Positions 4,860 to 24,000 of a stretch of DNA of 24,000 nucleotides are shown one piece after another. Positions within the stretch are counted from its first letter, which is position 1. Every line of letters starts with the position of its first letter. The notes under the pieces are model-generated. The model searched no databases. It saw nothing but the letters and a program-made list of their open reading frames with translations, and was not told the DNA's origin. This DNA is from Nitrososphaerota archaeon (GTDB lineage: Archaea > Thermoproteota > Nitrososphaeria_A > Caldarchaeales > Wolframiiraptoraceae): assembly GCA_021163925.1 (NCBI GenBank), contig JAGGTD010000002.1:1-24000 (forward strand), written 5' to 3'. The position numbers and the translations under genes are program-made.

Positions 4860-6433
4860 GATTCCAATACCTCCCTAACACTTCTCCTAATCCTCGACTG
4901 GATCCATGGCGGAGTCCATGGGACGAATATCCTCATAAACCTCTGATCCAACGCATCTCTGACCACATTCCTCTCCCCAACCTCAAGATATCCTCGAACG
5001 ACATTTCTAGAGAATCTTTCCGCCTCTTCCGGATTTAAGTAATGGCCTGTATAGAATAGCAGCTCACATAGATCCCAGGGCTTTGAGCCCTCGAAGGAAC
5101 ATTGTTCAAGATCCACTAAGTATGCTTCATCTCCTGCGAAGATGAACGTGAATGGATTACAGTCTCCTATGCAGATCCCCTTCTCGTGAACCATCGCTAG
5201 GGTCTTCCCCATCCTATATGAGATCGCATCGAATATCCTCGGCTCACCAGCATTCTTCAAAGCTTTCAACCCATTCACACCGTCTATGTATCTCTGGAAG
5301 ATCATCTTCTTAGGCCAATTTATATGGAGTATCTCGGCGGTGTTGAATCCAAGCTCTGATAGCTTGTTTATGAAGTAGATCTCATTACTCATCCTAGATG
5401 AGGCCAAGACCGAGAAGTTCTTCACACCTATGGCCCAGAGCCATGCCGCCACCCACTTGAAGTCGGTCCAGTTGAGATATTTCTTGATGAAGATCCTCTC
5501 CTCCCGTCCATCGACCCTAAATGATGCGAAGTAGGTTGAGTTGAAGACTCCTCCAACCTTCCTCAACTTGACATCCACAGGTCTAACCCCATAAGCCTCG
5601 TGAATGAAGTCCCTTATCCCCTTACTCGTCGCTAGGGATTGAGGTCCGATCGAGGTCTCCATGTAGAGCATCTTGCTAGGATCTGGAACCCTCATGGGGA
5701 TTAAGATGTCGAGATCGAGGCTTATGCTCTTGATGGCGTTTAGTGGTGATGAGAAGCTGGCCGTCAGATAGAGTTTAAGGAGGCGTTCAAGCTCGTCTGA
5801 GAATCTATCATAGATGGTCTTCCTAGACAAGACCTCATTGACGAATCTATCTGTTGGAGAATATCCTCCATGTCTCTCTTCAAGGATCCCCTGATCGACC
5901 AGCTCCTTTATCGCCCCCAGGAATCCCTCTAAAACCCTGCTGACATCATCCCTCGATCCTCTAAACATCTCCCTGACAAATCTCCTAGAGGGTGGATAGA
6001 TGGCAGTGAGCCTTCTAAGCTTGTCATAGAGGAAGTATTCAGGCTTGATTATCAGCCTGGTCGAGGCCAGCTTATGCTCTAAAATGAGGTTTTGAAGGGA
6101 TTCAACTATGACGAGCCTCTTATATCTCCTCTCAAGATCCTTTAAGAGCCTCTCATTGATTATGGGATTGTATGGGAGTAAGAAGCTGTGCGCTATGATC
6201 CCCCCGAACTCCTCATTTGAAGCGTCTCTTGAGGCGCTCTCCTCATCAGCCAATATCAAGAGGCTTAACCCCCTCTTCACGAACCTAAACTGCCTCACAA
6301 TATCCGTTATTACTAGTATGATCGAAGGCCGCCTCTCGGCTGACGCGCGGTGGATGCTTAGAGCCTTAACAGACTCCGCGGCGATCCCAATACGCTTAAG
6401 CTCCTCCTCAACTATTTCATCGGAGAATCGCAT
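4856..6433 (-). CDS. Two-domain protein: uncharacterised ~270-aa N-terminal region plus a C-terminal atypical protein-kinase-like fold (RIO/Bud32/Kdo-kinase-like)
   Basis: 525-aa ORF with ATG start. The C-terminal half follows the kinase layout: a G-loop-like KVGGVFNSTY, a beta3 Lys in RIFIKKY, a hinge MIFQRYIDG, a catalytic-loop-like HEKGICIGDCNPFTFIF, and a metal-binding equivalent YLVDLEQ. I recognise nothing in the N-terminal half. Confidence 0.55.
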   Translation of the reverse strand: MRFSDEIVEEELKRIGIAAESVKALSIHRASAERRPSIILVITDIVRQFRFVKRGLSLLILADEESASRDASNEEFGGIIAHSFLLPYNPIINERLLKDLERRYKRLVIVESLQNLILEHKLASTRLIIKPEYFLYDKLRRLTAIYPPSRRFVREMFRGSRDDVSRVLEGFLGAIKELVDQGILEERHGGYSPTDRFVNEVLSRKTIYDRFSDELERLLKLYLTASFSSPLNAIKSISLDLDILIPMRVPDPSKMLYMETSIGPQSLATSKGIRDFIHEAYGVRPVDVKLRKVGGVFNSTYFASFRVDGREERIFIKKYLNWTDFKWVAAWLWAIGVKNFSVLASSRMSNEIYFINKLSELGFNTAEILHINWPKKMIFQRYIDGVNGLKALKNAGEPRIFDAISYRMGKTLAMVHEKGICIGDCNPFTFIFAGDEAYLVDLEQCSFEGSKPWDLCELLFYTGHYLNPEEAERFSRNVVRGYLEVGERNVVRDALDQRFMRIFVPWTPPWIQSRIRRSVREVLES

Positions 6434-7963: not shown

Positions 7964-8066
7964 GCCCCGGTAGCTCAGTCTGGTAGAGCACCGGCTTGGT
8001 AAGCTAAAGCTTCAAAAAGCTGGCCCTAAGAGCCGGTGGTCCCGGGTTCAAAGCCCGGCCGGGGCT
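7964..8066 (+). tRNA. tRNA-Thr (anticodon GGU at 7998-8000) with a ~29-nt intron at the canonical 37/38 position (about 8002-8030)
   Basis: Manual fold: acceptor GCCCCGG/CCGGGGC, D stem GCTC/GAGC, anticodon stem CCGGC/GCCGG flanking loop TTGGTAA, T arm CCGGG-TTCAAAG-CCCGG, discriminator T. CCA is not encoded. An AT-rich box (aaatataaaa) lies ~30 nt upstream and a T6 run at 8105-8110 downstream. Confidence 0.9.
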
Positions 8067-10019: not shown

Positions 10020-10135
10020 GCCGGGGTGCCTTAGCCTGGTAGAGGGTCGGCCTCGAGATCATAGAAGCTGGTCAGAGGCGGGTGAGCCGATGCCCCATGC
10101 GGGGCGCGTGGGTTCAAATCCCACCCCCGGCGCCA
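10020..10135 (+). tRNA. tRNA-Ser (anticodon CGA at 10054-10056) with a ~27-nt anticodon-loop intron (about 10058-10085), a long variable arm and an encoded CCA
   Basis: Manual fold: acceptor GCCGGGG/CCCCGGC, anticodon stem TCGGC/GCCGA flanking CTCGAGA, variable arm GCCCC-ATGC-GGGGC, T arm GTGGG-TTCAAAT-CCCAC, discriminator G (typical for Ser), then CCA at 10133-10135. A TATA-like tttaatac (9986-9993) lies ~30 nt upstream. Confidence 0.85.
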
Positions 10136-10388
10136 GCCTTAAACACACTATATCCTCCCAAATTGGTTAATGGTCTCTCTTTGGGGGTTTCAGGTGAATT
10201 TAAGTCAGTGAGCAAGGGTGTCGGGAGAGATCCTTCTATTCTCTTTTAAGGATTCACTTGATGACCGCGATGGCGTAAGTTGTTCACGACTTCCCTTTTA
10301 ATCCTCTTTTTAAGATTCCTCGGTCTCAAACTCGGCGGCAAACCTCCTCCATGTATGTTTAAATGTCCTCTCTACCCGATCTTATCGA

Positions 10389-11985: not shown

Positions 11986-13173
11986 TTGAAATACTCTCGT
12001 AACAGAGATGACTTGGAGATGATCATAAGGCTTCCTAGAAGAGTCTCGGAGAAGGAGTGCGCGGTCTGCGGCAAGAGATCAAAACTCATCTCAAATTCCA
12101 TCAAGGTCTGCGTCGACTGTCTGAGGGAGAGGTCTGAGGAAGCTTTAAGGTATCCTATGGAGACGCATGAAGAGGTTAGGAGGAGGTTCGGGCTTCCACC
12201 AACTCCTCCCAGATCGGTGGATGGTGTTAAATGCAATCTATGTAGTGCTGAGTGCGTGATGGGGGAGGGGGAGAGAAGCTATTGCGGATTAAGGGAGAAT
12301 AGGGGTGGAAAGCTATTCTCATTGGCTGACTCGGAGAACGCGCTACTCCACTATTACCTCGACCCCCACGTCACGAACTGCTGTAACGCATGGTTCTGCC
12401 CAGCTGGAACTGGATCAGGCTACCCAGTTTATGCCGTTAAAGATGGCCCTGAATACGGCTACTATAACCTCGCCCTATTCTTCTATGGATGTAGCTTCGA
12501 CTGCCTCTTCTGCCAGAATTGGAGTCATAAGAATTTGAGGGATGCGAAAAGAGTTCATGTGAGGGAGATAGTGGACTTGACCCTCGAGGATAGGAGGATA
12601 ACATGCTGGTGCTGGTTCGGCGGGACTCCCGAACCCCAGCTCCCATTCGCGATAAATGCTTCGAGACTCATCTTGGAGGAAAAGCCGAGCAATAGAATTA
12701 TGAGGATATGTTTTGAGTGGAATGGGTCTGGAAACCCAAACCTCGTTAGGAAGGCGGCTGAATTATCGTTTGAGAGCGGTGGAAACATAAAATTCGATCT
12801 AAAAGCATTTACTCCGAGCGTTCACATGGCCTTGACTGGAAGAGATAATAAGCGGACATTTGAAAACTTTGAGCTAATCTATCGAGAGTTTTATGAGAGG
12901 AGGAGGGGTGTTCCGGTCTTGGCCGCCACAACCCTACTCGTCCCACATTATGTCGATGAGTATGAGGTTTCAAGGATAGCCGAGTTCATAGCAAGCCTAG
13001 ACCCAGAGATACCGTACAGTCTCCTAATATTCCATCCAGACTTCATGATGAGCGATGTGACGGTGACCCCGAGGAAACAGGTTGAGAGCTGCTATAGGGC
13101 TGCGAAGAGATATTTGAAGAACGTGAATATAGGGAACATAGCCTTGCTAGGGCTCGCCGAGGCCGGGCTATAA
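11986..13173 (+). CDS. Radical SAM enzyme, PflA/COG1180-like, with an N-terminal Cys-rich (zinc-ribbon-like) region
   Basis: 395-aa ORF from TTG 11986 (alternative ATG at 12019). The radical SAM motif is FFYGCSFDCLFCQNWSH. The N-terminus has CAVCGK...CVDC and further Cys pairs. Confidence 0.75.
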   Translation: MKYSRNRDDLEMIIRLPRRVSEKECAVCGKRSKLISNSIKVCVDCLRERSEEALRYPMETHEEVRRRFGLPPTPPRSVDGVKCNLCSAECVMGEGERSYCGLRENRGGKLFSLADSENALLHYYLDPHVTNCCNAWFCPAGTGSGYPVYAVKDGPEYGYYNLALFFYGCSFDCLFCQNWSHKNLRDAKRVHVREIVDLTLEDRRITCWCWFGGTPEPQLPFAINASRLILEEKPSNRIMRICFEWNGSGNPNLVRKAAELSFESGGNIKFDLKAFTPSVHMALTGRDNKRTFENFELIYREFYERRRGVPVLAATTLLVPHYVDEYEVSRIAEFIASLDPEIPYSLLIFHPDFMMSDVTVTPRKQVESCYRAAKRYLKNVNIGNIALLGLAEAGL

Positions 13174-14247
13174 TTCCCAGCTAACTGGAACGAATCTATA
13201 GTCGCTCATAAATCCGGGTGGAGGCCTGCCGTAGATCGCTATCGGATATCCGCAGAACTTACACCTATTCTTCTCATCTAGATTCCATGAGAGGATGTCA
13301 AATCCATATCTCTCAACCACAACCTTACCGCATTCAGGGCAATAGGTGCTCTCATACGGGTGACCTGGAACATTTCCGAGATAGACGTATCTCATCCCCT
13401 CCTCCTTGGCGATCTCATAATGCTTCTCAAGGGTCTTGATGGGAGTTACGGGGAGATCTAGAAGCTTGTAGTCTGGATGGAATCTAAGGAAGTGGATCGG
13501 AATATCTGGGCCGAGATTATCATAGATCCACCTCACAAGCCTTCTCGCGGCGTTTAAATCGTCTCCGATCCTAGGAACGACCAAGTCTGTTATCTCGATG
13601 TGTATGTTCGTCTTATCCCTTATCTCTAGAAGTGTCTGGAATATAGGCTCGGGATCTGGGACGCTCGCAAACTTTCTCAGGAAATCTCTATCCGCATTTC
13701 CCTTGAAGTCCACGGTCGCGGCGTCAAGGAAATCCTTCGCCTCGTTCACCGATTCAGGTGTCCAGTAGCCGTTTGTTACGAATACGTTTATCAATCCCTC
13801 CCTCCTCGCGATTACACCGACATCGTGGGCGAACTCCATGAAGATCGTCGGCTCATTATAGGTGTATGCGATTCCATGGCTCCCATGCTTCTTAGCCATC
13901 TTAACGACCAGCTCGGGAGTTACGTCCACGCCCTCAACCCTCCTCCTCTGACTGATATCATAGTTTTGACAATATTGGCATGCCCAATCGCATCCAGTTG
14001 TGGCTATGGAGAAGACCTTAGAACCGGGCGCGAAGTGGACTAATGGCTTCTTCTCGATGGGATCAACGTGGGCGGCGATGATCTTTCCATAGACGAGGAG
14101 GTAGAGGGTTCCATCCACATTCATCCTAACCCCACAGAACCCCACCTGACCCGGCCTAAGCCTACAATATCTCGGACAAGCCTTGCACACGACCATCTTA
14201 TCTCCAATCCTCTCGAAGAGCCTTGCAGGCGCTCCAGAAACTTTCAT
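13168..14247 (-). CDS. AmmeMemoRadiSam-system-type radical SAM enzyme (PflA-like)
   Basis: 359-aa ORF. Family-typical string: CKACPRYCRLRPGQVGFCGVRMN...VDPIEKKPLVHFAPGSKVFSIATTGCDWACQYCQNYDISQ. The C-terminus has a zinc-ribbon-like CPECGK...CKFCG. No AMMECR1 or Memo gene is in the window. Confidence 0.8.
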   Translation of the reverse strand: MKVSGAPARLFERIGDKMVVCKACPRYCRLRPGQVGFCGVRMNVDGTLYLLVYGKIIAAHVDPIEKKPLVHFAPGSKVFSIATTGCDWACQYCQNYDISQRRRVEGVDVTPELVVKMAKKHGSHGIAYTYNEPTIFMEFAHDVGVIARREGLINVFVTNGYWTPESVNEAKDFLDAATVDFKGNADRDFLRKFASVPDPEPIFQTLLEIRDKTNIHIEITDLVVPRIGDDLNAARRLVRWIYDNLGPDIPIHFLRFHPDYKLLDLPVTPIKTLEKHYEIAKEEGMRYVYLGNVPGHPYESTYCPECGKVVVERYGFDILSWNLDEKNRCKFCGYPIAIYGRPPPGFMSDYRFVPVSWEL

Positions 14248-14336
14248 AGTATCATCCTTAACACCTTTAGCAGAGCATATAAGGTTTTTGATTAGAGGAT
14301 TGCTTAAATCTTCGAAGACCTTGATTATCGGCGATC

Positions 14337-14759
14337 TTGAGAGGGGTTTACTTACTATTGTTAATGGTTGGACGCGATCTGAAGATTAGGGTTGGATCCT
14401 TGGGAGTTGTAAGGTTTAAGAGGGGTTACTACGTCTACGTCGGGTCAGGTCAAAGGTATCTTGAGAAGAGAATTCAAAGGCATAAGAAGAAGATCAAGAA
14501 GGTTAAGTGGCACATAGACTACTTGACGACAAATAGCGGTGTTAGAGTGATGGAAGCGGCGGTATACAATCTACCGAAAAAGTATGAGTGCATATTTGCA
14601 GACATGTTACGGAGCATGGGATTCAAATCCGTTAAGGGCTTCGGATCAACCGACTGCAAGTGCATCTCACATCTGTATCAAATTGATGTGGATTTTGATC
14701 GAATAGTTGATGAGATTTCGGATAAAGTTCGCGTTAAGCCGTTAAGGTTGGATCCATGA
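14337..14759 (+). CDS. GIY-YIG (Uri) superfamily DUF123/COG1833-type putative endonuclease
   Basis: 140-aa ORF with TTG start. Family-typical string: GVYLLLL...IRVGSLGVVRFKRGYYVYVGSGQRYLEKRIQRHKKK..KWHIDYL. Confidence 0.75.
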   Translation: MRGVYLLLLMVGRDLKIRVGSLGVVRFKRGYYVYVGSGQRYLEKRIQRHKKKIKKVKWHIDYLTTNSGVRVMEAAVYNLPKKYECIFADMLRSMGFKSVKGFGSTDCKCISHLYQIDVDFDRIVDEISDKVRVKPLRLDP

Positions 14760-14761
14760 AA

Positions 14762-14971
14762 TCATCTCCTTCTTCTACCCCTTACAGATCTCCTTGAGAC
14801 CTTCTCGATTATCATGCGAGAATTGTTCACGTCAACCGATATCGCGAGCTCGTCTCCTTCCTTGAACGGAAACTGGCTGTCATGCGCTAGCTTGGCCGGT
14901 ATGTGGATGTAATAGTATTCATTCCCACTCACATGGGTCTTCTTCCTTAGATGGCTCCTCGCCCTCAACAT
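14762..14971 (-). CDS. Small basic protein, possibly an AbrB/SpoVT-like swapped-hairpin DNA binder
   Basis: 69-aa ORF with ATG start. The core (YYIHIPAKLAHDSQFPFKEGDELAISVDVNNSRMIIEKV) fits the AbrB-type pattern, and the tail (RGRRRR) is very basic. The assignment is by pattern only. Confidence 0.45.
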   Translation of the reverse strand: MLRARSHLRKKTHVSGNEYYYIHIPAKLAHDSQFPFKEGDELAISVDVNNSRMIIEKVSRRSVRGRRRR

Positions 14972-15114
14972 CTCCGCCCGCCTCCTATATGGTGGGGAGA
15001 TTGATATATAAAAATTATTGATAAAAAAAGGTTATGATTTTTGGAGAACTTGCTTTAAAGGATTCCGGGAAACCTTTTTATTACGCTCCCTATCGATTGG
15101 ATTTAAGCCTAGAG

Positions 15115-15351
15115 ATGGGGAGGGTTAGGACTAGGAAGGTGAAGGTGCTGGCTAGGGAGATCTTAAAGACATTCCCAGATAGGGTTACAACTGACTTTGA
15201 GCTTAATAAGAAGCTAGTCGGCGAGGTCTTGGTCGGAAGGGTCTCGAAGAAGCTAAGGAATAAGGTGGCGGGCTATCTAACGGCTCTCGCTAAAAAGCTT
15301 GAGGCCGAGAGGCGGGAGGCCGAAGAAGTTAAGGAAGAGGCAACCGCTTAA
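15115..15351 (+). CDS. rps17e: 30S ribosomal protein S17e (eS17)
   Basis: MGRVRTRKVKVLAREILKTFPDRVTTDFELNKKLVGEV...SKKLRNKVAGYLT matches the eS17 pattern. The ORF-track start at 15034 adds 27 non-homologous residues. ATG 15115 has a TATA-like ctttttatta (15074-15083) ~35 nt upstream. Confidence 0.9.
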   Translation: MGRVRTRKVKVLAREILKTFPDRVTTDFELNKKLVGEVLVGRVSKKLRNKVAGYLTALAKKLEAERREAEEVKEEATA

Positions 15352-15376
15352 ATACGGGGATGAAAGACGTTTAATT

Positions 15377-15437
15377 GCCCGATGATGAGGATGACCTGCG
15401 CGGAGCGTATATGAGGAGGATGCACCTCTCTGAGGGT
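15377..15437 (+). ncRNA. Candidate C/D box sRNA (2'-O-methylation guide)
   Basis: C box AUGAUGA 15382-15388; 12-nt guide; D' CGGA 15401-15404; 6-nt linker; C' AUGAGGA 15411-15417; 12-nt guide; D box CUGA 15430-15433. The flanks (GCCC and GGGU) can pair. This is the canonical archaeal 12/12 spacing and ~52-nt core. Confidence 0.5.
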
Positions 15438-15443
15438 TTAGGG

Positions 15444-15725
15444 ATGGGCGGCTCTATCTCGATAAGGTTGATCGGCCTCTTAAGAGGGCTTATTGGATCG
15501 GATTCTTTGGAGATAGGGGTTGAGGGCGAGCTCGGGCTTCTACAAGTCTTAAATATGCTCCCAGAAAGGCTTAAAAGAGAGGTTTTAAGGGGGGCTGGAG
15601 AGCCTTCTCCAAAGATCTTGATCTTGGTTAATGGGGTTGAGGTCACGGGATTCGGGGAGCTTGAGAAGATCAGGGTTGGAGCTGGAGATGAGATAGTTTT
15701 AATACCGATAATTCATGGGGGCTAA
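15444..15725 (+). CDS. MoaD/ThiS-family beta-grasp protein ending in Gly-Gly (SAMP/Urm1-like small modifier or sulfur carrier)
   Basis: The ORF is open from TTG 15375. ATG 15444 gives a 93-aa product, MGGSISIRLIGLLRGLIG...ILILVNGVEV...VGAGDEIVLIPIIHGG-stop, which is the MoaD/ThiS C-terminal pattern (NG...DGDE..i.P..GG). Confidence 0.75.
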   Translation: MGGSISIRLIGLLRGLIGSDSLEIGVEGELGLLQVLNMLPERLKREVLRGAGEPSPKILILVNGVEVTGFGELEKIRVGAGDEIVLIPIIHGG

Positions 15726-15761
15726 GCGTTGAGCCTAACATCCTTTGGCGACAAGTGGGTT

Positions 15762-16295
15762 ATGGCAGGGGTCTGCCGAGGGGTTCGAGGAGAGGTTCTA
15801 AGAAGCCCCTTAAAGATTCTCGGAGATCTTAAAGCCTTGGGAGAAGACTTCACGGCTCAAATCTTCGATGCAGAACCCGTAATATCGCTGAGACAGATAC
15901 ACGCGGCCGCGGTTGCAGCCTACCTCTCATTTAAGGCTGGCGTCAATATATCAAAGAGACTTGAGATAGAGTTTCTTTTGAGACTTGCAGCCGATACCCA
16001 GATCGATAGAGCTTTGGAGAAGATCGGCGTTAAGCCTAATTCGAGCGAGGTTGGGTTCTGCATCTTCGCGGATAGTAAGGAGAGGGCGGTCGAGGTTGGG
16101 AGGGTAGCGCTTAGAACTCTCGGCGGAGAAGCCCTAACGGATGCAGAGCTTGGAGTAGAGGATAGGGTGAGGAGCGCCCTCAGATTCTATGGAATAGATG
16201 AGTCTGAGCTCAGAAATGTCCAAGCGGATTCAAGGCTTCAAGCCGCTCTCCTCTTAATCCTTGAGAGGATAGCGACTCTCGACATCAAGCGTTAG
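15762..16295 (+). CDS. cgi121: KEOPS complex subunit Cgi121
   Basis: The ORF is open from TTG 15729. ATG 15762 gives MAGVCRGVRGE..., comparable to archaeal Cgi121 N-termini. The middle block is AQIFDAEPVISLRQIHAAAVAAYLSFKAGVNISKRLEIEFLLRLAADTQIDRAL and the C-terminus is LLLILERIATLDI. Confidence 0.75.
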   Translation: MAGVCRGVRGEVLRSPLKILGDLKALGEDFTAQIFDAEPVISLRQIHAAAVAAYLSFKAGVNISKRLEIEFLLRLAADTQIDRALEKIGVKPNSSEVGFCIFADSKERAVEVGRVALRTLGGEALTDAELGVEDRVRSALRFYGIDESELRNVQADSRLQAALLLILERIATLDIKR

Positions 16296-16922
16296 ACCAA
16301 GCTCTTCGCAGACATCTTTAAGCTTCTCAACTGTTATCGAGCCTAATCTCAGGATTCTCAGCCGACCCTCGTCCACAAGCCTAACCACGGTTGAGGGCTT
16401 ACCTATTAAACACCTCCCACCATCGATCACCAGATCCACAGATCTCAAGATCTCCTCATCCAGCTCTTGGATGCTTTGAGGCGGCGGTAGTCCGGAGATG
16501 TTCGCGCTCGTCCCGACCAAGAGTCCTCCCGACTCCTTGATTATGGTTAAGGTTTGGAGAGATGCGGGTATCCTAACACCAATCCTTCTATCCTCAGACA
16601 TGAGCCTCGAAATTCTAAAACTAGGCTTCGCCCTAAGTAGGATTGTTAATTGACCGGGCCATAGCTTTGAGACGATCTCGAACTCGATCTCATTCATCTC
16701 GGCGATCCTCTCAATATCGTTAAGATCTTTAGCGAGAATTGGCATGGGCTTCCCAAATCTCTTCTTAATCTCATAGATCCGCTTAACCGACTCATCGTTG
16801 AGAGGGTCGCATCCAATTCCATAGACCGTATCTGTTGGAAAGACTATAACCCCTCCAGCCTTGACAATATTCCCCGCGAGCTTCGCGGATTTGGTCGAGA
16901 ATTTTAGAACTCTCATCTTCAT
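16254..16922 (-). CDS. L-threonylcarbamoyladenylate synthase, single-domain TsaC/YrdC-type (Sua5 family without the C-terminal SUA5 domain)
   Basis: 222-aa ORF. YrdC-domain motifs: VIVFPTDTVYGIGCDP, IYEIKKRFGKPMPIL (K-x-R), VGTSANISG (S-x-N), GKPSTVVRL. The ATGA start overlaps the upstream gene's stop. Confidence 0.85.
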   Translation of the reverse strand: MKMRVLKFSTKSAKLAGNIVKAGGVIVFPTDTVYGIGCDPLNDESVKRIYEIKKRFGKPMPILAKDLNDIERIAEMNEIEFEIVSKLWPGQLTILLRAKPSFRISRLMSEDRRIGVRIPASLQTLTIIKESGGLLVGTSANISGLPPPQSIQELDEEILRSVDLVIDGGRCLIGKPSTVVRLVDEGRLRILRLGSITVEKLKDVCEELGLTLDVESRYPLKD

Positions 16923-18097
16923 GGAAGCGTTCCCAGAGATGAGTAGAAGGCTTCGAGCGCCGTCCCCTCATCCGCCTCGAATCCCAGCTTCCTAAGCGTA
17001 TATGCTAGGCCGGTTATCGTGTAAACTAGGTATGGCACGTTCGCCGTCATCCCCATATGTCCAACCCTTACAGTCGTGTTCTCAAGCTTGCCCATCCCCC
17101 TCGCTAAGAGTATGTTGAATCTATGGAGCATTTCCTGAATCAATTTCTTAGGCATCCCATGTGGGAGCTTGATCACCGTTATCGTCGACGAGGCGTATTC
17201 ATCCGGCGCAACGGTCTCTAAGCCCATCGCCCTCACAGCCTCCCTAAAGGCAGTCGCCATCCTCCTATGCCTTTCATACCTCTTCTCAAGCCCCTCGTTC
17301 AAGACAATTCTCAAAGCCTCTCTAAACGCTAGGATTGTGTGGGTTGGAACCTCGGTTGGGTATGGTCTGCCGAGCACGCTCCACCTCTCGATAGACTCCT
17401 TCCAAACCTTTAGGTCTAGGAACCATGCGGCAACCTTCCACTTCCTATCCTCTATGATCCTCTCAGCTCTTGGGCTGACGGCCACTGGGGTTATCCCGGT
17501 TAGGCCTGAGATCGCCATCCCACAGTGGCCCACACAGTAATCTACGCCCCACTCATCGACTCTTAGATCCATTCCACCATAGGAGGATGAGGCGTCGACC
17601 ATGAAGAGAGCATTACTATTCTCTTGAACGACTTTTCCATAGGTCTTAACTGGGTTGCGAACGCCTGTGGAGGTCTCGCTATGCAGGGCTACGACTAGAT
17701 CGACATCTGGATTCTCTCGGAGAACGGACTTCAACTCAGATGGCTTAACTATTTGACCATAATCCGCCTCAACCGTAACCACGTCTCGGCCGAGATGGCG
17801 AGCTATATCTACAATCCTCTCTCCACAGAATCCATTGACTATAACGAGTAGCTTTCCATCGGGTGGGACGAGGTTCGCGATCCCCATCTCTAGAGCGGCC
17901 GAGTATGGAGCGGGTATCAGGAGGACTTCTCCAGATGATCCGAATGGTTTCTTCGCCATCTCCCTAACTTCCTCGAATATCTTCCCCCACCTTCTCCCAT
18001 AATATGGCATGGGGTGTAGGGATACCGCCGTCAGGACTCCCGCCGGAACCTCCGATGGCCCCGGGACCATCAGTATCGGTCTCTCAACCTTGCTCAT
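16919..18097 (-). CDS. Class V (AGXT/serine-pyruvate-type) aminotransferase-fold protein lacking the canonical Schiff-base lysine
   Basis: 392-aa ORF. Family blocks: MVPGPSEVP, NGFCGERI, ALHSETSTGV, FMVDASSSYGG, DEWGVDYCVGHCGMAISGLTG. The last block has Met194 (17516-17518) where the family has SQK. Confidence 0.75.
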   Translation of the reverse strand: MSKVERPILMVPGPSEVPAGVLTAVSLHPMPYYGRRWGKIFEEVREMAKKPFGSSGEVLLIPAPYSAALEMGIANLVPPDGKLLVIVNGFCGERIVDIARHLGRDVVTVEADYGQIVKPSELKSVLRENPDVDLVVALHSETSTGVRNPVKTYGKVVQENSNALFMVDASSSYGGMDLRVDEWGVDYCVGHCGMAISGLTGITPVAVSPRAERIIEDRKWKVAAWFLDLKVWKESIERWSVLGRPYPTEVPTHTILAFREALRIVLNEGLEKRYERHRRMATAFREAVRAMGLETVAPDEYASSTITVIKLPHGMPKKLIQEMLHRFNILLARGMGKLENTTVRVGHMGMTANVPYLVYTITGLAYTLRKLGFEADEGTALEAFYSSLGTLP

Positions 18098-18203
18098 GTC
18101 TACCTCTCCTCTCGTAAAATTGTGTAAGACCTAGCTTAAAATCCTTCCACGCGCCTCCTCCCAGCTAAATATCTCTGAGTCTAAACCCGCGATTATCCCA
18201 ATC

Positions 18204-19055
18204 TTACAGTTCCTCAATAAATTCTTCGATAAGCTTATTCAGATCATCTGCCCTCTCATAGAGTATTAGGTGGCCTGCTCTCTCTAAGATCGCGAGCCTC
18301 GAATTCGGGAGTAGTTCATGGATTTTGATGCTCTCATCCTTCGGCGTCACCTTATCATCCTCCCCCACGATCACTAGGGCTGGAGTCTTAACCTCGGAGA
18401 GCCACTTAGATGCATCATAATCTTGGAAGAACTTCAGGTATCTGAATGCGTGGGCTGGAAGGCTCTCAAGATACTCCTTGTTATCTTTGATGAATTCCTC
18501 GAATATCTCATCCGATGTGGAGGGGCTGAAGAATAGACCTCTATACACCTTCCTCGTAAGCGGGTTCTCGGTGAAGAATAATTTTCTCCAAAATATCGGT
18601 GGGAGATTCCAGACTATCTTATCGATTATGTCGGGCTTGATCTTGATCAAGGATCCTATCAAGACCAAACCTTTAACGGCGTGATCTCTGGCATATGCTT
18701 GGGCGACCATGCCTCCAAAGCTGTGGCCGACTAAAACCGCATCATCAGCCGATATGTTAAGTTTGTTCATGAGCGATGTGAGATCATCGAGATAATCCTT
18801 CAACAGAACCTTGGCGGGTTTATCCGATCTTCCATATCCCCGCTGATCATAAGCCACCACCCTATACCTCTCCTCAAAGTAGCTTATCTGATACTTCCAG
18901 TTTGAGATCTGTCCAGGTGATCCGTGGAGGAAGATCATCGTTAATGGGCTTTGATAGCTATGCGTCCTCGACGAATCATATACATGTAGCTTCAAGCCAT
19001 CTAGGTCTATGAAGAAGAGGTTTCTCTGATCGATCAAAGCCTTCTCATCCGACAT
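18204..19055 (-). CDS. Alpha/beta-fold hydrolase
   Basis: 283-aa ORF. Oxyanion HG motif IFLHGSPG, nucleophile elbow VGHSFGG (G-x-S-x-G), and a C-terminal AGHLILYE histidine block. Confidence 0.85.
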   Translation of the reverse strand: MSDEKALIDQRNLFFIDLDGLKLHVYDSSRTHSYQSPLTMIFLHGSPGQISNWKYQISYFEERYRVVAYDQRGYGRSDKPAKVLLKDYLDDLTSLMNKLNISADDAVLVGHSFGGMVAQAYARDHAVKGLVLIGSLIKIKPDIIDKIVWNLPPIFWRKLFFTENPLTRKVYRGLFFSPSTSDEIFEEFIKDNKEYLESLPAHAFRYLKFFQDYDASKWLSEVKTPALVIVGEDDKVTPKDESIKIHELLPNSRLAILERAGHLILYERADDLNKLIEEFIEEL

Positions 19056-19091
19056 GTGGGAGATTCTGGTCTAGGCGGCTTATATCAGTTT

Positions 19092-19511
19092 CTACCTCTC
19101 CAACTCTTTTAGCCGTCTTGTTATGGCCTCGTTTGCGAGCCTATCCGCTTCCACGTTAAGCTCTCTCGGAACGTATACTATCCTATATTCCTTGAAATTT
19201 TTGAGGAGTTGGAGGCATTCTAGATGGAGCCTCTTAAGCTTCTCATCCCTAACGGAGTATACTCCCTTAACCTGTCTCACCAGAAGTTCGCTGTCAGAGT
19301 ATAGCTCCACCTTCTCCGCGCCTAGCTGCACGGCTCTCCTCAAAGCCTCGATCAAAGCATGATATTCGGCCTCATTATTCGTTCCAAAGCCGATAAACTT
19401 TGAGAACTTATCCAAAACTCTTCCAGACTCATCGAAGACTATTATCCCGATACCCGATGGCCCGGGGTTTCCATGCGATGATCCATCGAAGAATATCTTC
19501 AGGGTCTTCAA
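19092..19511 (-). CDS. rnhA: Ribonuclease HI (type 1 RNase H)
   Basis: 139-aa ORF. The TTG start lies in a TTGA overlap with the L10e stop. DEDD residues are in FFDGSSHGNPGPSG, TNNEAEYHALI, YSDSELLV and VEADRLAN. Confidence 0.85.
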   Translation of the reverse strand: MKTLKIFFDGSSHGNPGPSGIGIIVFDESGRVLDKFSKFIGFGTNNEAEYHALIEALRRAVQLGAEKVELYSDSELLVRQVKGVYSVRDEKLKRLHLECLQLLKNFKEYRIVYVPRELNVEADRLANEAITRRLKELER

Positions 19512-20017
19512 GCCGCCTTACTCGCCGCGAGCTCCCTGATCAAGACCCTATACCTCTTGGGAAGCTTCTTCGCCGCTATCCTCAATGCCTTCTTTGCCTC
19601 CTCAACCCCATTACTATAGGTCAAGACCCTGAAGACGGGTGATCCCTTCCTAACCCTCGCAGCCCTTCCAACAGGTTTTCCGAAGGCTCTCCTCATCCCT
19701 TCCTGAAGCCTATCCGCGTGTGCTCCGAAGATCATCTTATTCTCCCTTAAGACGTGGTGTGGATGGGCCTTAAGCTCTAGGAAGAAGTTGTCTCCACCCA
19801 GCTTGGATGTGAGCTGCTTACCTATCGCGACTCTAGCGGATTCAAGCGCTACATCCCTGACTTGGAGATCCTCCTCGGCGATCAACAGCAGTTCATGGGT
19901 GTAGTCCTCCTTATAGGATCCCATCGTATACTTCGCTATCCTAGGCTGAGGCGCTCCATGGATATAATCCTCTCTAGTGTATGGCCTCTCGGCAGCCCTC
20001 CAATTCCTAGCCCTCAT
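19508..20017 (-). CDS. rpl10e: 50S ribosomal protein L10e (uL16)
   Basis: 169-aa ORF beginning MRARNWRAAERPYTREDYIHGAPQPRIAKYTMG, and containing ...RENKMIFGAHADRLQEGMRRAFGKP. This is the typical archaeal L10e pattern. Confidence 0.9.
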   Translation of the reverse strand: MRARNWRAAERPYTREDYIHGAPQPRIAKYTMGSYKEDYTHELLLIAEEDLQVRDVALESARVAIGKQLTSKLGGDNFFLELKAHPHHVLRENKMIFGAHADRLQEGMRRAFGKPVGRAARVRKGSPVFRVLTYSNGVEEAKKALRIAAKKLPKRYRVLIRELAASKAA

Positions 20018-20050
20018 CCCAATCTCCCCTCAAAGATCCGATAACGGCGC

Positions 20051-20815
20051 TTATTTAGTCTTCAACTCTAGGAACTTCTCCGAGACTGAGAGCAATTGAG
20101 ACGGCGTTAGCTGGTAAACCCTCTTCGACATGAGTTCATCTCCTAGAACCTCGGTTAAATCAACGGCCAACTCCTCTTCCTTCGCGAGGTCTCTCAGTAT
20201 TCGCCTTAACATCTGCCTCCTCCTCGTGAAGAGGAATTTGACGAATCTCTTAACATCTTCATCCAGCTTCCGAACACCCTCCCTCCTCCTCATCAAGACT
20301 ATCGCTGAATCGACTTTGGGCATGGGTCTGAACAGATTTCTGGGGATGAACTCGACCACGCTTGACTCGTAGAGTAGGTTTGAGAGGAATGAGATGTATA
20401 GATATTTCGTGGACCCTGGCTTGGCCACAAGCTTTGACGCAAACTCCCTTTGAAGCGTTAAAACTATTCTCTCCGCGTCTTCTTCGATGAGCCATTCGAG
20501 GAGCCTCGTCGAGATATTATATGGGGGGTTTGAGACCACCTTATTGAAGCCTGTGGGCTTGAGCTTGAGGACGTCTCCGACCAAGAGCTCGACGTTATCA
20601 TAGTCCTTTAACCTCCTCCTCGCCTCCTCCGCCAATTCTTGGTCGAGTTCAACAGCTATTACCTTGCCAGCCTTCTCAGCAAGCCTCGCCGTGAGTTCTC
20701 CTCTTCCAGCCCCGACATCTAAGACTACGTCATCCCTTGTAATCTCGCCATATCGAACCATCCTATCGAGGATCTTCTCATCTATCAGGAAATGTTGGCC
20801 GAGCCTTCTCCTCAT
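20051..20815 (-). CDS. rsmA: 16S rRNA (adenine1518/1519-N6)-dimethyltransferase RsmA/KsgA/Dim1
   Basis: 254-aa ORF with LGQHFLID at the N-terminus, SAM motif VLDVGAGRGELT and VVSNPPYNIST. Confidence 0.9.
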   Translation of the reverse strand: MRRRLGQHFLIDEKILDRMVRYGEITRDDVVLDVGAGRGELTARLAEKAGKVIAVELDQELAEEARRRLKDYDNVELLVGDVLKLKPTGFNKVVSNPPYNISTRLLEWLIEEDAERIVLTLQREFASKLVAKPGSTKYLYISFLSNLLYESSVVEFIPRNLFRPMPKVDSAIVLMRRREGVRKLDEDVKRFVKFLFTRRRQMLRRILRDLAKEEELAVDLTEVLGDELMSKRVYQLTPSQLLSVSEKFLELKTK

Positions 20816-21411
20816 ATCGGTGGACTCGTCCTTCTGATGGGCTCCCTCACGAACAACCTATGCCTCTCCTCATGGTTCATGAGCTCTTGCAGGATCCTCT
20901 GGACAATTATCTTGACCGGATCCTGAATCTTACCCCTCTTCTTCAAGTCCTCATAGCTCTCGAAGGGCTTTATCTCCCTCTCCGCGATTATCTTCAAGGC
21001 TATCTTCTTACCTATACTTGGCATGAGTTCTAAGGCGTGCATCTTAGGGGTTACTGGAGTGCATTTATTGAAGAACTCCACGAACCTCTGCTCATTCGAC
21101 TCAACTATCTTTCTGACAGCGTTCTCAAGCTCGTTCTTCGCATTCTGAGTTAAGTCCTCATAATTTATCCTCCTAATGATCCTCAAAATACTCCTCGGAA
21201 CATCCTTTCCAACATAGATTCTAGTCCCTATCGGCGGCTTATGCTTCGGCGAGACCGCGGCCTCAAGCAAAGTGAAGAAATCCTCGCCCAAGAGCTGGAC
21301 TATAAGCTCTCCTCGCGAGAGGGTTATGTTCGGAAGCCTCGCCTTGAGCTCAGACGCTGGATAAACGTCTAAAACATATGCAAAGTCTTCATATTTCTTC
21401 TGTCTAACCAA
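20812..21411 (-). CDS. DUF655/COG1491 predicted RNA-binding protein with a helix-hairpin-helix
   Basis: 199-aa ORF with TTG start. The N-terminus is YEDFAYVLDVYP, and an HhH-like LMPSIGKKIALKII follows later. Its position between Rpo4 and KsgA matches the conserved archaeal gene string. It overlaps ksgA by 4 nt. Confidence 0.75.
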   Translation of the reverse strand: MVRQKKYEDFAYVLDVYPASELKARLPNITLSRGELIVQLLGEDFFTLLEAAVSPKHKPPIGTRIYVGKDVPRSILRIIRRINYEDLTQNAKNELENAVRKIVESNEQRFVEFFNKCTPVTPKMHALELMPSIGKKIALKIIAEREIKPFESYEDLKKRGKIQDPVKIIVQRILQELMNHEERHRLFVREPIRRTSPPI

Positions 21412-21440
21412 AGGCCAACAACCCCATGGCTTAGATCAAG

Positions 21441-21800
21441 CTATTCCTCTTTCCCCATCTCCAAATACTTCTTGACCAAGTCGACTATTGCCTGCATCTT
21501 CTCCTCCGAGAAGAGTAGGAATGAGACGAGCCTCTTATATCCGCTGAGTATCGCCCTTAACTCCTCGATATGCGTCGGACATATATCGGCTATTTGGACC
21601 GCCTCCTCCCTCGTTAGCTCAAACTTCTCCATGAGTTCCTCGATGAGCTTCTCGGCCGCCTCGCTTGAGAGCTTCGAGTACTTCCTAACATAGTTTAAGA
21701 CTCTTAGCTGCATGGAGTTTAATTCCTCCTCCCTCTCCTCCATCAACCGCTTAACCTCTGGTAATGAGAGTGGGGTTTGGGATAAGATCTTCTTAGCCAT
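21441..21800 (-). CDS. rpo4: DNA-directed RNA polymerase subunit Rpo4 (RpoF, Rpb4 family)
   Basis: 119-aa acidic helical ORF (LSLPEVKRLMEEREEELNSMQLRVLNYVRKYSKL...EEAVQIADICP). Its size, composition and position directly downstream of L21e fit RpoF. Confidence 0.7.
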   Translation of the reverse strand: MAKKILSQTPLSLPEVKRLMEEREEELNSMQLRVLNYVRKYSKLSSEAAEKLIEELMEKFELTREEAVQIADICPTHIEELRAILSGYKRLVSFLLFSEEKMQAIVDLVKKYLEMGKEE

Positions 21801-21805
21801 CCTTC

Positions 21806-22099
21806 TCAGCCACCCCAGCTCGATAGATGATCTGGTAGGATTGTGAGAATCTTCTGCTTATTTCCAAGCCTAACCCCCACCACGTAGGCTCTCCCCCTCT
21901 TCCCCAAAACCTCCCCTATCTTCCCATGATATCTTCGATGAGGCATCCCCTTATGAACCGCTGGATTTATCTTTATGGCAACCTTGTCTCCAACCCTAAA
22001 CTCTCTTAAATAGATCTCTGGATTTGGGCCCTGCCTCGAGCCCTTAGGCTTAGTCAATACGTCTCTAGACTTGTATCTGAATCCCTTTGATTTCGGCAT
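21806..22099 (-). CDS. rpl21e: 50S ribosomal protein L21e (eL21)
   Basis: MPKSKGFRYKSRDVLTKPKGSRQG...FRVGDKVAIKINPAVHKGMPHRRYHGKIGEVLGKRGRAYVV is the L21e pattern. The ORF track starts two codons earlier at TTG 22105; ATG 22099 is preferred. Confidence 0.9.
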   Translation of the reverse strand: MPKSKGFRYKSRDVLTKPKGSRQGPNPEIYLREFRVGDKVAIKINPAVHKGMPHRRYHGKIGEVLGKRGRAYVVGVRLGNKQKILTILPDHLSSWGG

Positions 22100-22155
22100 T
22101 TCCAACGATTTTTAAGGTATAGGCGATTTAAAAGCTTTAAGAATGGCGCGTTTGC

Positions 22156-22785
22156 TCAGCTTCTCGTGAGCTTCTCCTTAAACTTCTTGATGACTGAGCT
22201 CAGCGATGGCGGCAGGGAGCTCTCCTCATAGATCTCTATCTCCTCAACCCTCCTAGGGGTTCCTAGATACTTGAGCTCGACGAGCTCCATCCCTTGGATC
22301 GTGCTCTCCAAGACCTTCCCCCTATGAATCCCTATCGTGGTCCTGACCTGAACCACCTTCCCCTTCCTATTGATCCTGAAGACCTTAAACTTTAGATCCC
22401 TGAGCCTCCTAGTCCTCGCATAGTCTACTGGATCCACGACTAGGGCGACGGCCTTCGGGAACATCATCTGATATCTCTTCTGAGTCTCGATATCTATCGC
22501 GGATAGGAAGAGGCTGAATCCTGGGTGAGAGTGATACCATCCAACTATGTATAGTCCAGGTCTATTTCTCAAAACCCAGTCCGCCGCGGCCGCTATGGTG
22601 TTCTCATCTAGATAGACGAATCCGGAGGTGGCTCTCTGCGCTCCGGTTACGGCATCCCAGATCTCCAAGACATCTTTCTTCTTGAGATACTTCCCTATTA
22701 GGAGTCCAGCAACCTCTCTCTCAAGGTCGCTTAGGGTGTGTTTAATCACCTTCCCGATCGCAAGTGGGTAGATCCTCGCCCTCAT
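22156..22785 (-). CDS. MPN+/JAMM metalloprotease, Rpn11/CSN5-like (putative deubiquitylase)
   Basis: 209-aa ORF with ATG start. The upstream Glu is in [11 protein letters not shown]. The JAMM block [23 protein letters not shown] (H-x-H-x7-S-x2-D, 22492-22533) is very close to the eukaryotic Rpn11 block as I recall it ([23 protein letters not shown]). Confidence 0.9.
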   Translation of the reverse strand: [209 protein letters not shown]

Positions 22786-22908
22786 CTTAACTTATGTTAA
22801 AGTCTCATTAGGATGGATTTAATGTTACCTATCCCATTTGTCCGGTAATCTCATGGTATTTCGTCTAAGATTTCTCTAGGATTCTCGTAGACTCCCCCGC
22901 ACTTAACA

Positions 22909-22938
22909 CTTATATAGAGTGTATCAGAGGATTTAAGG
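22909..22938 (+). promoter_or_regulatory. Candidate TATA elements for the ubiquitin-like gene, within the divergent promoter region shared with the JAMM gene
   Basis: cttatatag (22909-22917) and atttaagg (22931-22938) lie 40-48 and 19-26 nt upstream of ATG 22957. A GGTG (22945-22948) could serve as a short Shine-Dalgarno if the distal box is used. Confidence 0.3.
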
Positions 22939-22956
22939 CGGATTGGTGTAGAGCGT

Positions 22957-23193
22957 ATGAAGATTAAGGTCGTTCCCGCAATCGGCGGAGGGAGTCCAAT
23001 AGAGCTTGAGGTCTCTCCAACGACCACGATAGGAGCTATAAGGGCGAAGGTATGCGCCATGAAGAGGCTTCCACCAGACACCACCAGACTAACCTATAGA
23101 GGTAGGGCGTTGAAAGACGTTGAAACCCTAGCATCCCTCGGGGTACAGGATGGAGACAAGCTTGTATTGATAACGAGGACGGTTGGAGGCTGA
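22957..23193 (+). CDS. Ubiquitin-family small protein (eukaryote-type Ub homologue) ending in Gly-Gly-stop
   Basis: 78 aa: MKIKVVPAIGGGSPIELEVSPTTTIGAIRAKVCAMKRLPPDTTRLTYRGRALKDVETLASLGVQDGDKLVLITRTVGG. By eye it aligns along its whole length with ubiquitin ([71 protein letters not shown]), with about one third of positions identical and a 2-residue insertion in the first loop. GGA GGC TGA is at 23185-23193. Confidence 0.85.
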   Translation: MKIKVVPAIGGGSPIELEVSPTTTIGAIRAKVCAMKRLPPDTTRLTYRGRALKDVETLASLGVQDGDKLVLITRTVGG

Positions 23194-23222
23194 GCTACAT
23201 CCTCATAGATCTGCTCAAAATA

Positions 23223-23229
23223 TTTTTTT
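23223..23229 (+). terminator. Oligo-T tract (T7), candidate archaeal intrinsic terminator or attenuator after the ubiquitin-like gene
   Basis: tattttttta begins 28 nt after the Ub stop codon. Archaeal RNAP terminates at oligo-dT runs. Confidence 0.35.
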
Positions 23230-23297
23230 AGGGATACGCATCCAAGACGAGATGACGCAAGTATTCTATGAGAATGACCATCAATGATCCTTTTGAG

Positions 23298-23310
23298 TTA
23301 AGGTTAATTA
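23298..23310 (+). promoter_or_regulatory. Candidate TATA box for the E2-E1 transcription unit
   Basis: ttaaggttaatta lies 23-35 nt upstream of ATG 23333. This would give a leaderless or near-leaderless E2 mRNA. Confidence 0.3.
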
Positions 23311-23332
23311 CCCGGCTTTGAACCTCTATCTA

Positions 23333-23818
23333 ATGGCTTTGCTGGCAGAACTTCCTGAGCCGCTATGGTATAGGAGGCTCGCGATCGAGTATAAGCTTAT
23401 GCATGAGCATGAGCCGTTATTCGATATAGTTGAGGGAGATTTAACCCACTATAAGGGGGTTTTAATAGGCTCAGGACTCTATGAAGGTGGATACTTCAAG
23501 GTTGAGATCCTCTTGTCGAGGAGCTTTCCATTCGTTCCACCGAAGGTTATTTGGTGGACTAGGATATGGCATCCAAACTTCACCGATGAGGTTCCGGCGA
23601 GGATCTGCGAGTCCATCTTTAAGGATGATTGGAGACCTCCCCTCCACCTGATAACGGTTATAGGGGCTTTGAGAAATCTCTTGAACAACCCTAATCCAGA
23701 CGATCCATTAAACACAATAGCGGCGATGGAGATGAAGTTTAGGCCAGATGTATTTAAGGCGAGGGTTAGACAATATATCGAGCTCTACGCGAGACCCGAG
23801 AAATCGTTAATAAAGTAA
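23333..23818 (+). CDS. Ubiquitin-conjugating enzyme (E2, UBC fold)
   Basis: The ORF is open from TTG 23318; ATG 23333 is preferred (161 aa). UBC core: YEGGYFKVEILLSRSFPFVPPKVIWWTRIWHPNF (HPN at 23570-23578), catalytic Cys in ARICESIFKDDWRPP (TGC 23606-23608), then LRNLLNNPNPDDPLN. This tracks the eukaryotic E2 consensus (YPf.PPkv.F.T.i.HPNi...G.iCldiL...W.P......LL..PnpddPl). Confidence 0.85.
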   Translation: MALLAELPEPLWYRRLAIEYKLMHEHEPLFDIVEGDLTHYKGVLIGSGLYEGGYFKVEILLSRSFPFVPPKVIWWTRIWHPNFTDEVPARICESIFKDDWRPPLHLITVIGALRNLLNNPNPDDPLNTIAAMEMKFRPDVFKARVRQYIELYARPEKSLIK

Positions 23819-23831
23819 AATAGATGGCTAG

Positions 23832-24000
23832 ATGAGATCTAATCGAATGCCGGGTTCAGATGGAGTCGAACTAAGCGGCGAGTTGCTGGAGCGATATGAT
23901 AGGCAGCTTAGGCTTGAGGGATGGGATCAGAGGAAGCTAATGGATTCTGAGGTGATCATAGTTGGGGTTGGAGCCATAGGATGTGAGTTGGCTAAAGATC
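23832..24000 (+). CDS. Ubiquitin-activating enzyme E1-like (ThiF/MoeB/Uba adenylation domain), 5' fragment running off the right edge
   Basis: This ORF is not in the supplied track. My manual translation from ATG 23832 (or ATG 23847, same frame; TAG stop at 23829-23831 just upstream) gives MRSNRMPGSDGVELSGELLERYDRQLRLEGWDQRKLMDSEVIIVGVGAIGCELAKD. RYDRQ plus the GxGxxG loop GVGAIGCEL resembles the Uba1/Uba3 block GAGAIGCELLKN. It begins 13 nt after the E2 stop. Confidence 0.8.
   Translation, partial: MRSNRMPGSDGVELSGELLERYDRQLRLEGWDQRKLMDSEVIIVGVGAIGCELAKD

Follow-up and report, generated by a model that had tools for sequence, protein, structure and literature searches.

Introduction

The closest described relatives of the gene cluster considered here come from Candidatus Caldiarchaeum subterraneum (shortened below to C. 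subterraneum), in which rpn11l, ubl, e2l, e1l and srfp genes lie side by side (Nunoura et al., 2011; PMC3082918) as CSUB_C1473 (Rpn11-like), C1474 (ubiquitin), C1475 (E2), C1476 (E1) and C1477 (small RING finger). The E1, E2 and RING cascade of this organism has been reconstituted in vitro; its Rpn11 homolog both cuts a nine-residue propeptide, CGEPIRRAA, off C. subterraneum ubiquitin (CsUb) and deconjugates ubiquitin; and the sites of ubiquitin chain formation have been mapped to K4, K53 and K68 (Hennell James et al., 2017; PMC5654768). Structures have been solved for CsUb and CsRpn11, in work that also mentions an adjacent second E3 and the coexistence of SAMP-type and eukaryote-type modifier systems in the same organism (Fuchs et al., 2018; PMC6043591). 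A ubiquitin system was present in all six of the Aigarchaeota bins examined in a further study (Hua et al., 2018; PMC6053391). Here we report a computational analysis of another such cluster, encoded at the right end of a 24,000-nucleotide (nt) stretch of DNA (positions 1-24000 of contig JAGGTD010000002.1, from the Nitrososphaerota archaeon assembly GCA_021163925.1), which we call the window. We found no individual description of this operon member, and the one paper we found that mentions both Wolframiiraptor and ubiquitin names the latter a single time, in an introductory remark about C. subterraneum. The system itself has been known since 2011 and is characterized both biochemically and structurally; what this member adds is comparative detail.

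Results

The cluster is almost certainly a chromosomal, vertically inherited, eukaryote-type ubiquitylation operon of the Caldarchaeales, carried here by an archaeon of hot environments. Four open reading frames (ORFs), read from the ORF list and the raw sequence, make up the portion inside the window: a JAMM protease gene on the minus strand, followed on the plus strand by ubiquitin, E2 and the beginning of E1. A first-pass annotation of this DNA, made from the letters alone, had claimed four adjacent genes of a ubiquitin cascade, of eukaryotic rather than SAMP/MoaD type; all four frames occupy the positions it gave and carry the motifs it named, and the Pfam families (all assigned above their curated cut-offs), the PDB matches and the E2 model agree on the eukaryotic affinity. 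The features of the cluster, left to right, are as follows.

22156-22785, minus strand: predicted Rpn11-like JAMM/MPN+ deubiquitylase, 209 aa (Pfam JAB, motif residues, 6FJU match)
22910-22916, plus strand: TTATATA, candidate TATA element for the ubiquitin gene, 41 nt 5' of its ATG and conserved in alignment
22944-22947, plus strand: GGTG, Shine-Dalgarno-like element 5' of the ubiquitin ATG
22957-23193, plus strand: ubiquitin, 78 aa (Pfam PF00240, CsUb match, TGA straight after Gly-Gly)
23223-23229, plus strand: run of seven T, candidate oligo-T terminator or attenuator, 30 nt past the ubiquitin stop codon
23297-23311, plus strand: AT-rich box GTTAAGGTTAATTAC, candidate separate promoter for E2-E1-RING, 22-36 nt 5' of the E2 ATG
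23333-23818, plus strand: E2 ubiquitin-conjugating enzyme, 161 aa (stop 23816-23818; HPN at residues 80-82, C92)
23832-24000, plus strand: N-terminus of the E1 activating enzyme, first 56 aa, cut by the window end

The 78-residue protein, which the first-pass annotation had read as a ubiquitin homolog, matches the Pfam ubiquitin family (PF00240) at 53.5 bits against a cut-off of 25.4, and the Pfam search returned no ThiS or MoaD match for it. Its best PDB match is CsUb (6FJ7/2MQJ; E = 1.4e-39), followed by eukaryotic ubiquitin; it is 81% identical to the ubiquitin of a C. subterraneum-type locus and 39% identical to human ubiquitin over 67 columns. K4, K31, K36, K53 and K68 are conserved, as is T46, the equivalent of human I44, while the positions of human K48 and K63 hold R50 and D65. 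Compared with a genome that is about 85% identical at the DNA level (L003), the ubiquitin gene differs at 25 nucleotides, none of which alters the protein; in the same comparison, the adjacent ribosomal protein L21e differs at 2 of 98 residues and the nearby L10e at 5 of 170. Purifying selection on this ubiquitin is near-absolute, and tighter than on the adjacent ribosomal proteins.

The JAMM protein likewise falls on the Rpn11 side of its superfamily, scoring 66.4 bits against Pfam JAB (PF01398; cut-off 22.5) versus 37.6 bits against Prok-JAB. The motif is complete (E24 with H85-S-H87-x7-S95-x2-D98) and includes the upstream catalytic Glu that had been proposed. Its best PDB match is CsRpn11 (6FJU; E = 2.5e-63), and the next is eukaryotic Rpn11 (E = 7e-18).

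The E2 matches Pfam UQ_con (PF00179) at 91.3 bits. As had been claimed, it carries an HPN motif (residues 80-82) and a catalytic cysteine, its single Cys, C92, encoded by TGC at 23606-23608; both Cys and HPN are invariant across 27 homologs. Sequence matches in the PDB are to the eukaryotic E2-25K, Ubc13 and UbcH5, down to E = 1e-23. An AlphaFold model built with the 27 homologs (mean predicted local distance difference test score, pLDDT, 82.8) superposes on UbcH5c (1X23) with a template-modeling (TM) score of 0.80, and by this model the protein has the UBC fold. An upstream TTG start, which would give an E2 of 166 aa, was considered and dropped in favor of the ATG at 23333 on the alignment of homologs.

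The E1 fragment in the window reads MRSNRMPGSDGVELSGELLERYDRQLRLEGWDQRKLMDSEVIIVGVGAIGCELAKD; RYDRQLRL and the nucleotide-binding loop GVGAIG both occur in it, and it matches positions 1-37 of the Pfam ThiF profile. The 13-nt gap noted earlier between the E2 stop and the E1 start is correct for the first E1 ATG (23832), while gene callers on sister contigs picked the second (23847), giving a gap of 28 nt.

The operon beyond the window

Three contigs (L002, L004 and L005) are 99.7-99.8% identical to positions 12957-24000 of the window and extend to its right. The window fragment of E1 is identical to the start of an intact 406-aa E1 on L004, so the frame that had been called E1 from its RYDRQLRL N-terminus continues to its end with no decay past the window. 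This full protein matches ThiF at 214 bits and bears a C-terminal ubiquitin-like domain (331-388), a cysteine (C195) aligned with the catalytic Cys of Uba1, and the zinc motifs CLEC (177) and CFVC (320). Among PDB entries it matches the eukaryotic Uba1 and UBA3 best (E = 1e-43 to 1e-39), and ThiF and MoeB less well (E = 1e-30 to 1e-26). On all three contigs, E1 is followed by an 85-aa small RING protein (33 nt further on in L004; zf-RING_2, 40.5 bits; ligand spacing C-x2-C-x12-C-x2-C-x4-H-x2-C-x11-C-x2-C), just where a RING component had been predicted, beyond position 24000; the resulting order of Rpn11, ubiquitin, E2, E1 and small RING, which the first-pass annotation had given for C. subterraneum, is indeed the published one (PMC3082918). 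The gaps between operon genes here are 139, 13, 33 and 43 nt. Further genes follow on L004.

L004 12430-12780, plus strand: coiled-coil protein, 116 aa, between the two RING genes
L004 12770-13603, minus strand: coiled-coil protein, 277 aa, between the two RING genes
L004 13715-14446, plus strand: second RING protein, 243 aa, about 3.4 kb past the right window end

For the 116-aa and 277-aa proteins, Pfam gave only non-specific coiled-coil matches below cut-off; they could serve as adaptors or substrates. The second RING protein comprises four hydrophobic segments resembling transmembrane (TM) helices, a Pro/Ala-rich linker and a C-terminal C4HC3 RING, an architecture consistent with what may be a membrane-anchored E3. 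As far as we searched, no earlier characterization of it was found. A tRNA-splicing endonuclease gene lies downstream of the operon on L004, and an aminoacyl-tRNA synthetase gene stands at the right flank.

A mature ubiquitin terminus

The ubiquitin encoded here ends in TRTVGG, with a TGA directly after it and no propeptide. A stop straight after Gly-Gly is found throughout the clade of the window—TGA in the window itself, TAG in sister genomes. We considered whether the TGA might be recoded or read through and rejected this: in close relatives the codon is TAG or TAA, and four codons further on comes another in-frame stop, which together argue for selected termination rather than recoding.

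Across 75 species-level loci, a tail past Gly-Gly is absent in 40 and amounts to 1-20 poorly conserved residues in the remaining 35; the propeptide is, therefore, not a family-defining feature. Mature ubiquitin is encoded by Calditenuaceae, by Wolframiiraptor and by the window clade. Most of the tailed loci have overlapping ubiquitin and E2 genes, the ubiquitin stop falling within the beginning of E2, and a spacer separates the two genes in nearly all loci that lack a tail. On this pattern, the propeptide seems to result from overlap between the ubiquitin and E2 genes, varying with the lineage, and not to be a fixed step of the pathway. Because no residues follow Gly-Gly here, the JAMM protease would be needed in this lineage only for deconjugation, as a deubiquitylase, and not for maturation.

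Candidate transcription signals

Conserved intergenic motifs were sought by aligning relatives of this archaeal host. All five aligned relatives keep the TTATATA box unchanged, even one (L009) with otherwise diverged flanks; the T-run after ubiquitin is kept in relatives; and the GTTAAGGTTAATTAC box is invariant in four relatives, within a spacer whose flanking parts vary. Taken together with the spacing of the genes, the three elements suggest that ubiquitin may be expressed separately from, and at a higher level than, the E2-E1-RING genes.

Distribution and lineage

With the E2 alignment as query, 80 loci were recovered from a set made up of a single genome for each GTDB species. The best belongs to a metagenome-assembled genome (MAG) of an uncultured Nitrososphaeria archaeon (L007; E2 99% identical, DNA 95.8% identical to the window) and the second to the MAG Thaumarchaeota archaeon AUK008 (E2 96% identical); the others include Ca. 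Benthortus, Geocrenenecus, Wolframiiraptor, Terraquivivens, Pelearchaeum, Caldarchaeum and Calditenuis, along with a few Heimdall- and Bathyarchaeia-type E2s at about 49%. NCBI taxonomy places Benthortus in the Wolframiiraptoraceae and C. subterraneum in the Caldarchaeales. Some 70 species-level Caldarchaeales genomes repeat this gene order, far beyond chance, and the cluster is present in essentially every sampled species of the order. The exact 78-aa ubiquitin is, moreover, indexed in 210 blocks of a public sequence collection, and contigs and MAGs almost identical to the window are public already, with automatic annotation.

The flanks of the cluster differ in their reach. The left flank (KsgA-DUF655-RpoF-L21e) is common only to Wolframiiraptoraceae genera, and the right flank, with the aminoacyl-tRNA synthetase gene, is common as far as Caldarchaeum. 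This sharing of flanks, together with the relatives recovered by the E2 scan, places the locus inside the lineage in which the system was discovered and indicates vertical inheritance at a stable chromosomal site. The lineage of the window, of roughly genus rank, is nearest the Wolframiiraptoraceae within the Caldarchaeales (formerly Aigarchaeota); it is not a new phylum.

An eight-gene layout is found not only here but also in a C. subterraneum-type locus (L051) and in dozens of other Caldarchaeales. In Wolframiiraptoraceae and Caldarchaeaceae, both RING genes and both coiled-coil genes are conserved beside the operon; of the coiled-coil genes, that for 277 aa can be detected in both families and that for 116 aa in Wolframiiraptoraceae and in only some Caldarchaeum loci. 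Calditenuaceae loci yielded no RING or coiled-coil gene within 6 kb. In these and related loci (L049-L072) the operon appears reduced to ubiquitin, E2 and E1, about half of them having a detectable JAMM gene; no ORF with a RING motif lies within 6 kb, and the E3 of these loci would either lie elsewhere in the genome or be absent.

Neighboring genes and other observations in the window

The neighbors of the ubiquitin cluster in the window are L21e, RpoF/Rpb4, DUF655, KsgA/Dim1 and L10e. This bears out the first-pass description of ribosomal, RNA polymerase and rRNA-modification surroundings free of mobile or defence genes: none were found in the window, with the sole exception of a weak, decayed CRISPR-like trace at 10176-10318. 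That trace, on the plus strand directly after a tRNA gene, consists of three degenerate copies of a roughly 22-nt repeat, 63-64 nt apart, one of which barely reaches the Rfam CRISPR-DR45 threshold (37.3 versus 37 bits). It may be a decayed mini-CRISPR array; there are no cas genes in the window.

A small ORF at 15411-15725 on the plus strand, contained in a longer ORF that starts at 15375, ends in IVLIPIIHGG followed by a stop. It gives a near-threshold ThiS match (21.2 bits, cut-off 22.5) as well as Urm1 matches, and looks, from its sequence, like a modifier of SAMP/Urm1 type. Next to the ORF are genes for Cgi121 (KEOPS), Sua5 and a cysteine desulfurase, and the eukaryote-type ubiquitin gene is 7 kb away.

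Rfam identified tRNA genes at 7964-8066 (103 nt) and 10020-10132 (113 nt), both on the plus strand. ARAGORN reported no tRNAs in the window and so missed both; its negative was set aside because Rfam had found the two. Genes of these lengths are suggestive of archaeal introns, which would fit the presence of a tRNA-splicing endonuclease gene on L004. Elsewhere, two adjacent proteins (2849-3823 and 3852-4859, plus strand) have only weak matches to the NTP_transf_2 nucleotidyltransferase family, and a 525-aa protein (4856-6433, minus strand) has only a faint match resembling Kdo/RIO kinases; all three have next to no annotation.

Discussion

By analogy with C. subterraneum, the pathway encoded here would begin with the 78-aa ubiquitin being made ready for use, its Gly-Gly end free. 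E1 would adenylate Gly78 with ATP and then hold ubiquitin as a thioester on Cys195; the C-terminal ubiquitin-like domain of E1 would recruit E2, and ubiquitin would be handed to Cys92. The 85-aa RING protein would stimulate discharge to substrate lysines and to K4, K53 and K68 of ubiquitin itself, and the divergently encoded Rpn11-like JAMM metalloprotease would take ubiquitin off again.

Nothing contradicts the identification of the operon, and the sequence data show the gene identities, the catalytic residues, the fold, the synteny and the purifying selection, but several points weigh against accepting this account in full. Its enzymology is borrowed from C. subterraneum, and a link to the proteasome is likewise presumed. 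Within the window there are only 56 residues of E1 and no RING, the remainder coming from near-identical contigs. Further, the promoter and terminator roles proposed for the TATA box, the T-run and the GTTAAGGTTAATTAC box are putative, these being conserved motifs only. The in vivo substrates, and the split between transcription of ubiquitin and that of E2-E1-RING, are also matters that we infer.

Among other explanations, the one that survives best, though it is very unlikely, is that the locus is a conflict or defence cassette of the E1/E2/JAB kind (Bil, CBASS Cap2/Cap3, 6A-6E), directed against viruses and moving horizontally. PADLOC does match the adenylation domain of E1 to its "E1-E2" (Cap2-like) models, with scores as high as 73 bits, and the JAMM protein to its JAB models, with scores as high as 33 bits, and some 12 kb separate the locus from the decayed CRISPR-like repeats. 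However, the E1 matches are confined to the common adenylation core (residues 27-188 of 406), PADLOC returns no match for ubiquitin, E2 or either RING, and E1 and E2 are here separate genes and not a Cap2-type fusion. The neighbors are ribosomal, RNA polymerase and tRNA-synthetase genes, syntenic across genera, and the cluster sits at the same chromosomal site in essentially every sampled species of the order. The housekeeping role favored over a conflict role by the first-pass annotation is, therefore, the better fit.

Less probable still is a sulfur-carrier or sampylation system of the SAMP/MoaD-ThiS type, with E1-only chemistry, a JAMM desampylase and a merely superficial likeness to ubiquitin and E2. 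The E1 core matches the NCBIfam models for ThiF, MoeB and the SAMP-activating UbaA at 123-142 bits, but these scores fall far under the cut-offs of 266-450 bits (for UbaA, 123 versus 450), and the desampylase model reaches only 23 bits on the JAMM protein against a cut-off of 130; no NCBIfam model reaches its cut-off for any of the six operon proteins. The modifier itself matches Pfam ubiquitin and not ThiS, and a UBC-fold E2 and RING fingers are present. The separate SAMP-like Gly-Gly gene at 15411-15725 also speaks against this explanation, since it implies that two modifier systems coexist. As for eukaryotic DNA, mis-binned into an archaeal assembly through contamination or recent transfer, all four proteins do have their nearest relatives outside the archaea among eukaryotes, but the scenario is exceedingly improbable for an intron-free operon that shares one contig with archaeal ribosomal proteins, RpoF, a tRNA-splicing endonuclease and presumably intron-containing archaeal tRNAs, that was assembled independently in at least six metagenomes, and whose proteins are 30-39% identical to eukaryotic ones versus 51-81% to those of C. 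subterraneum type.

The vertically inherited ubiquitylation operon may itself be part of something larger. It is possible, albeit rather doubtful, that the conserved unit is an eight-gene module, exceeding the five genes published, in which the four-TM RING E3, perhaps together with the two coiled-coil proteins, forms a native targeting layer; in which ubiquitin is uncoupled from the enzymes, its gene specifying the mature protein and having a TATA box and a T-run terminator to itself; and in which the Rpn11 homolog is a pure deubiquitylase and the propeptide a by-product of gene overlap. If so, the module would constitute an archaeal membrane-associated ubiquitylation pathway, with a logic like that of endoplasmic reticulum-associated degradation (ERAD) or the MARCH ligases.

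The system bears on the origin of eukaryotic ubiquitin signaling, a significance established by the work on C. subterraneum and on Asgard archaea. What the present locus contributes is evidence that the operon and its eight-gene neighborhood are stable across at least two Caldarchaeales families, and that the pro-ubiquitin step is absent from about half of the lineages, that of the window included. It may also prove useful for picking orthologs for biochemistry.

Comparison with known systems

The resemblance to archaeal SAMP/UbaA/JAMM systems and to bacterial defence E1/E2/JAB systems extends to the ThiF-type adenylation core and the JAMM motif; SAMP systems, however, use another modifier family and have neither a UBC-type E2 nor a RING. 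Asgard archaea (Heimdallarchaeia and others) possess the same kind of eukaryote-like components, and Heimdall E2s are 46-50% identical to the E2 described here. Searches within 6 kb of the E2 in the Heimdall loci that were fetched turned up, at the thresholds applied, no homolog of ubiquitin, E1, JAMM or the small RING, and these loci therefore do not share the compact arrangement of the Caldarchaeales.

The eukaryotic system (Uba1/UBA3, UbcH5/Ubc13/E2-25K, RING E3s and Rpn11) shares the folds, the catalytic motifs and the order of the chemistry, and supplies the best non-archaeal matches for all components. It differs in organization: the E1 here is one short protein of 406 aa, whereas eukaryotic E1 is a pseudo-dimer of about 1000 aa; the Rpn11 homolog is free-standing, without an Rpn8 partner or a lid, unlike proteasomal Rpn11 in eukaryotes; and the genes form an operon, which those of the eukaryotic ubiquitin system do not.

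The closest correspondence is with C. subterraneum, even though the host here belongs to a different family. CsUb carries the nine-residue propeptide CGEPIRRAA and the ubiquitin of the window none; the genes are spaced here and overlap in the C. subterraneum-type locus; and the left flank of L21e, RpoF, DUF655 and KsgA does not occur in Caldarchaeum. Identity to the C. subterraneum-type proteins of L051 declines from ubiquitin (81%) through E2 (66%), JAMM (59%), E1 (51%) and the small RING (41%) to the second RING (35%). Yet the two loci have in common their gene order and orientation, the divergent Rpn11 gene and all catalytic residues; the small coiled-coil gene, the large coiled-coil gene on the opposite strand, the second RING and the aminoacyl-tRNA synthetase; the C-terminal ubiquitin-like domain of E1 and the C4HC3 pattern of zinc ligands in both RINGs; and a ubiquitin that shares the terminal TRTVGG, the lysines K4, K31, K36, K53 and K68, and T46.

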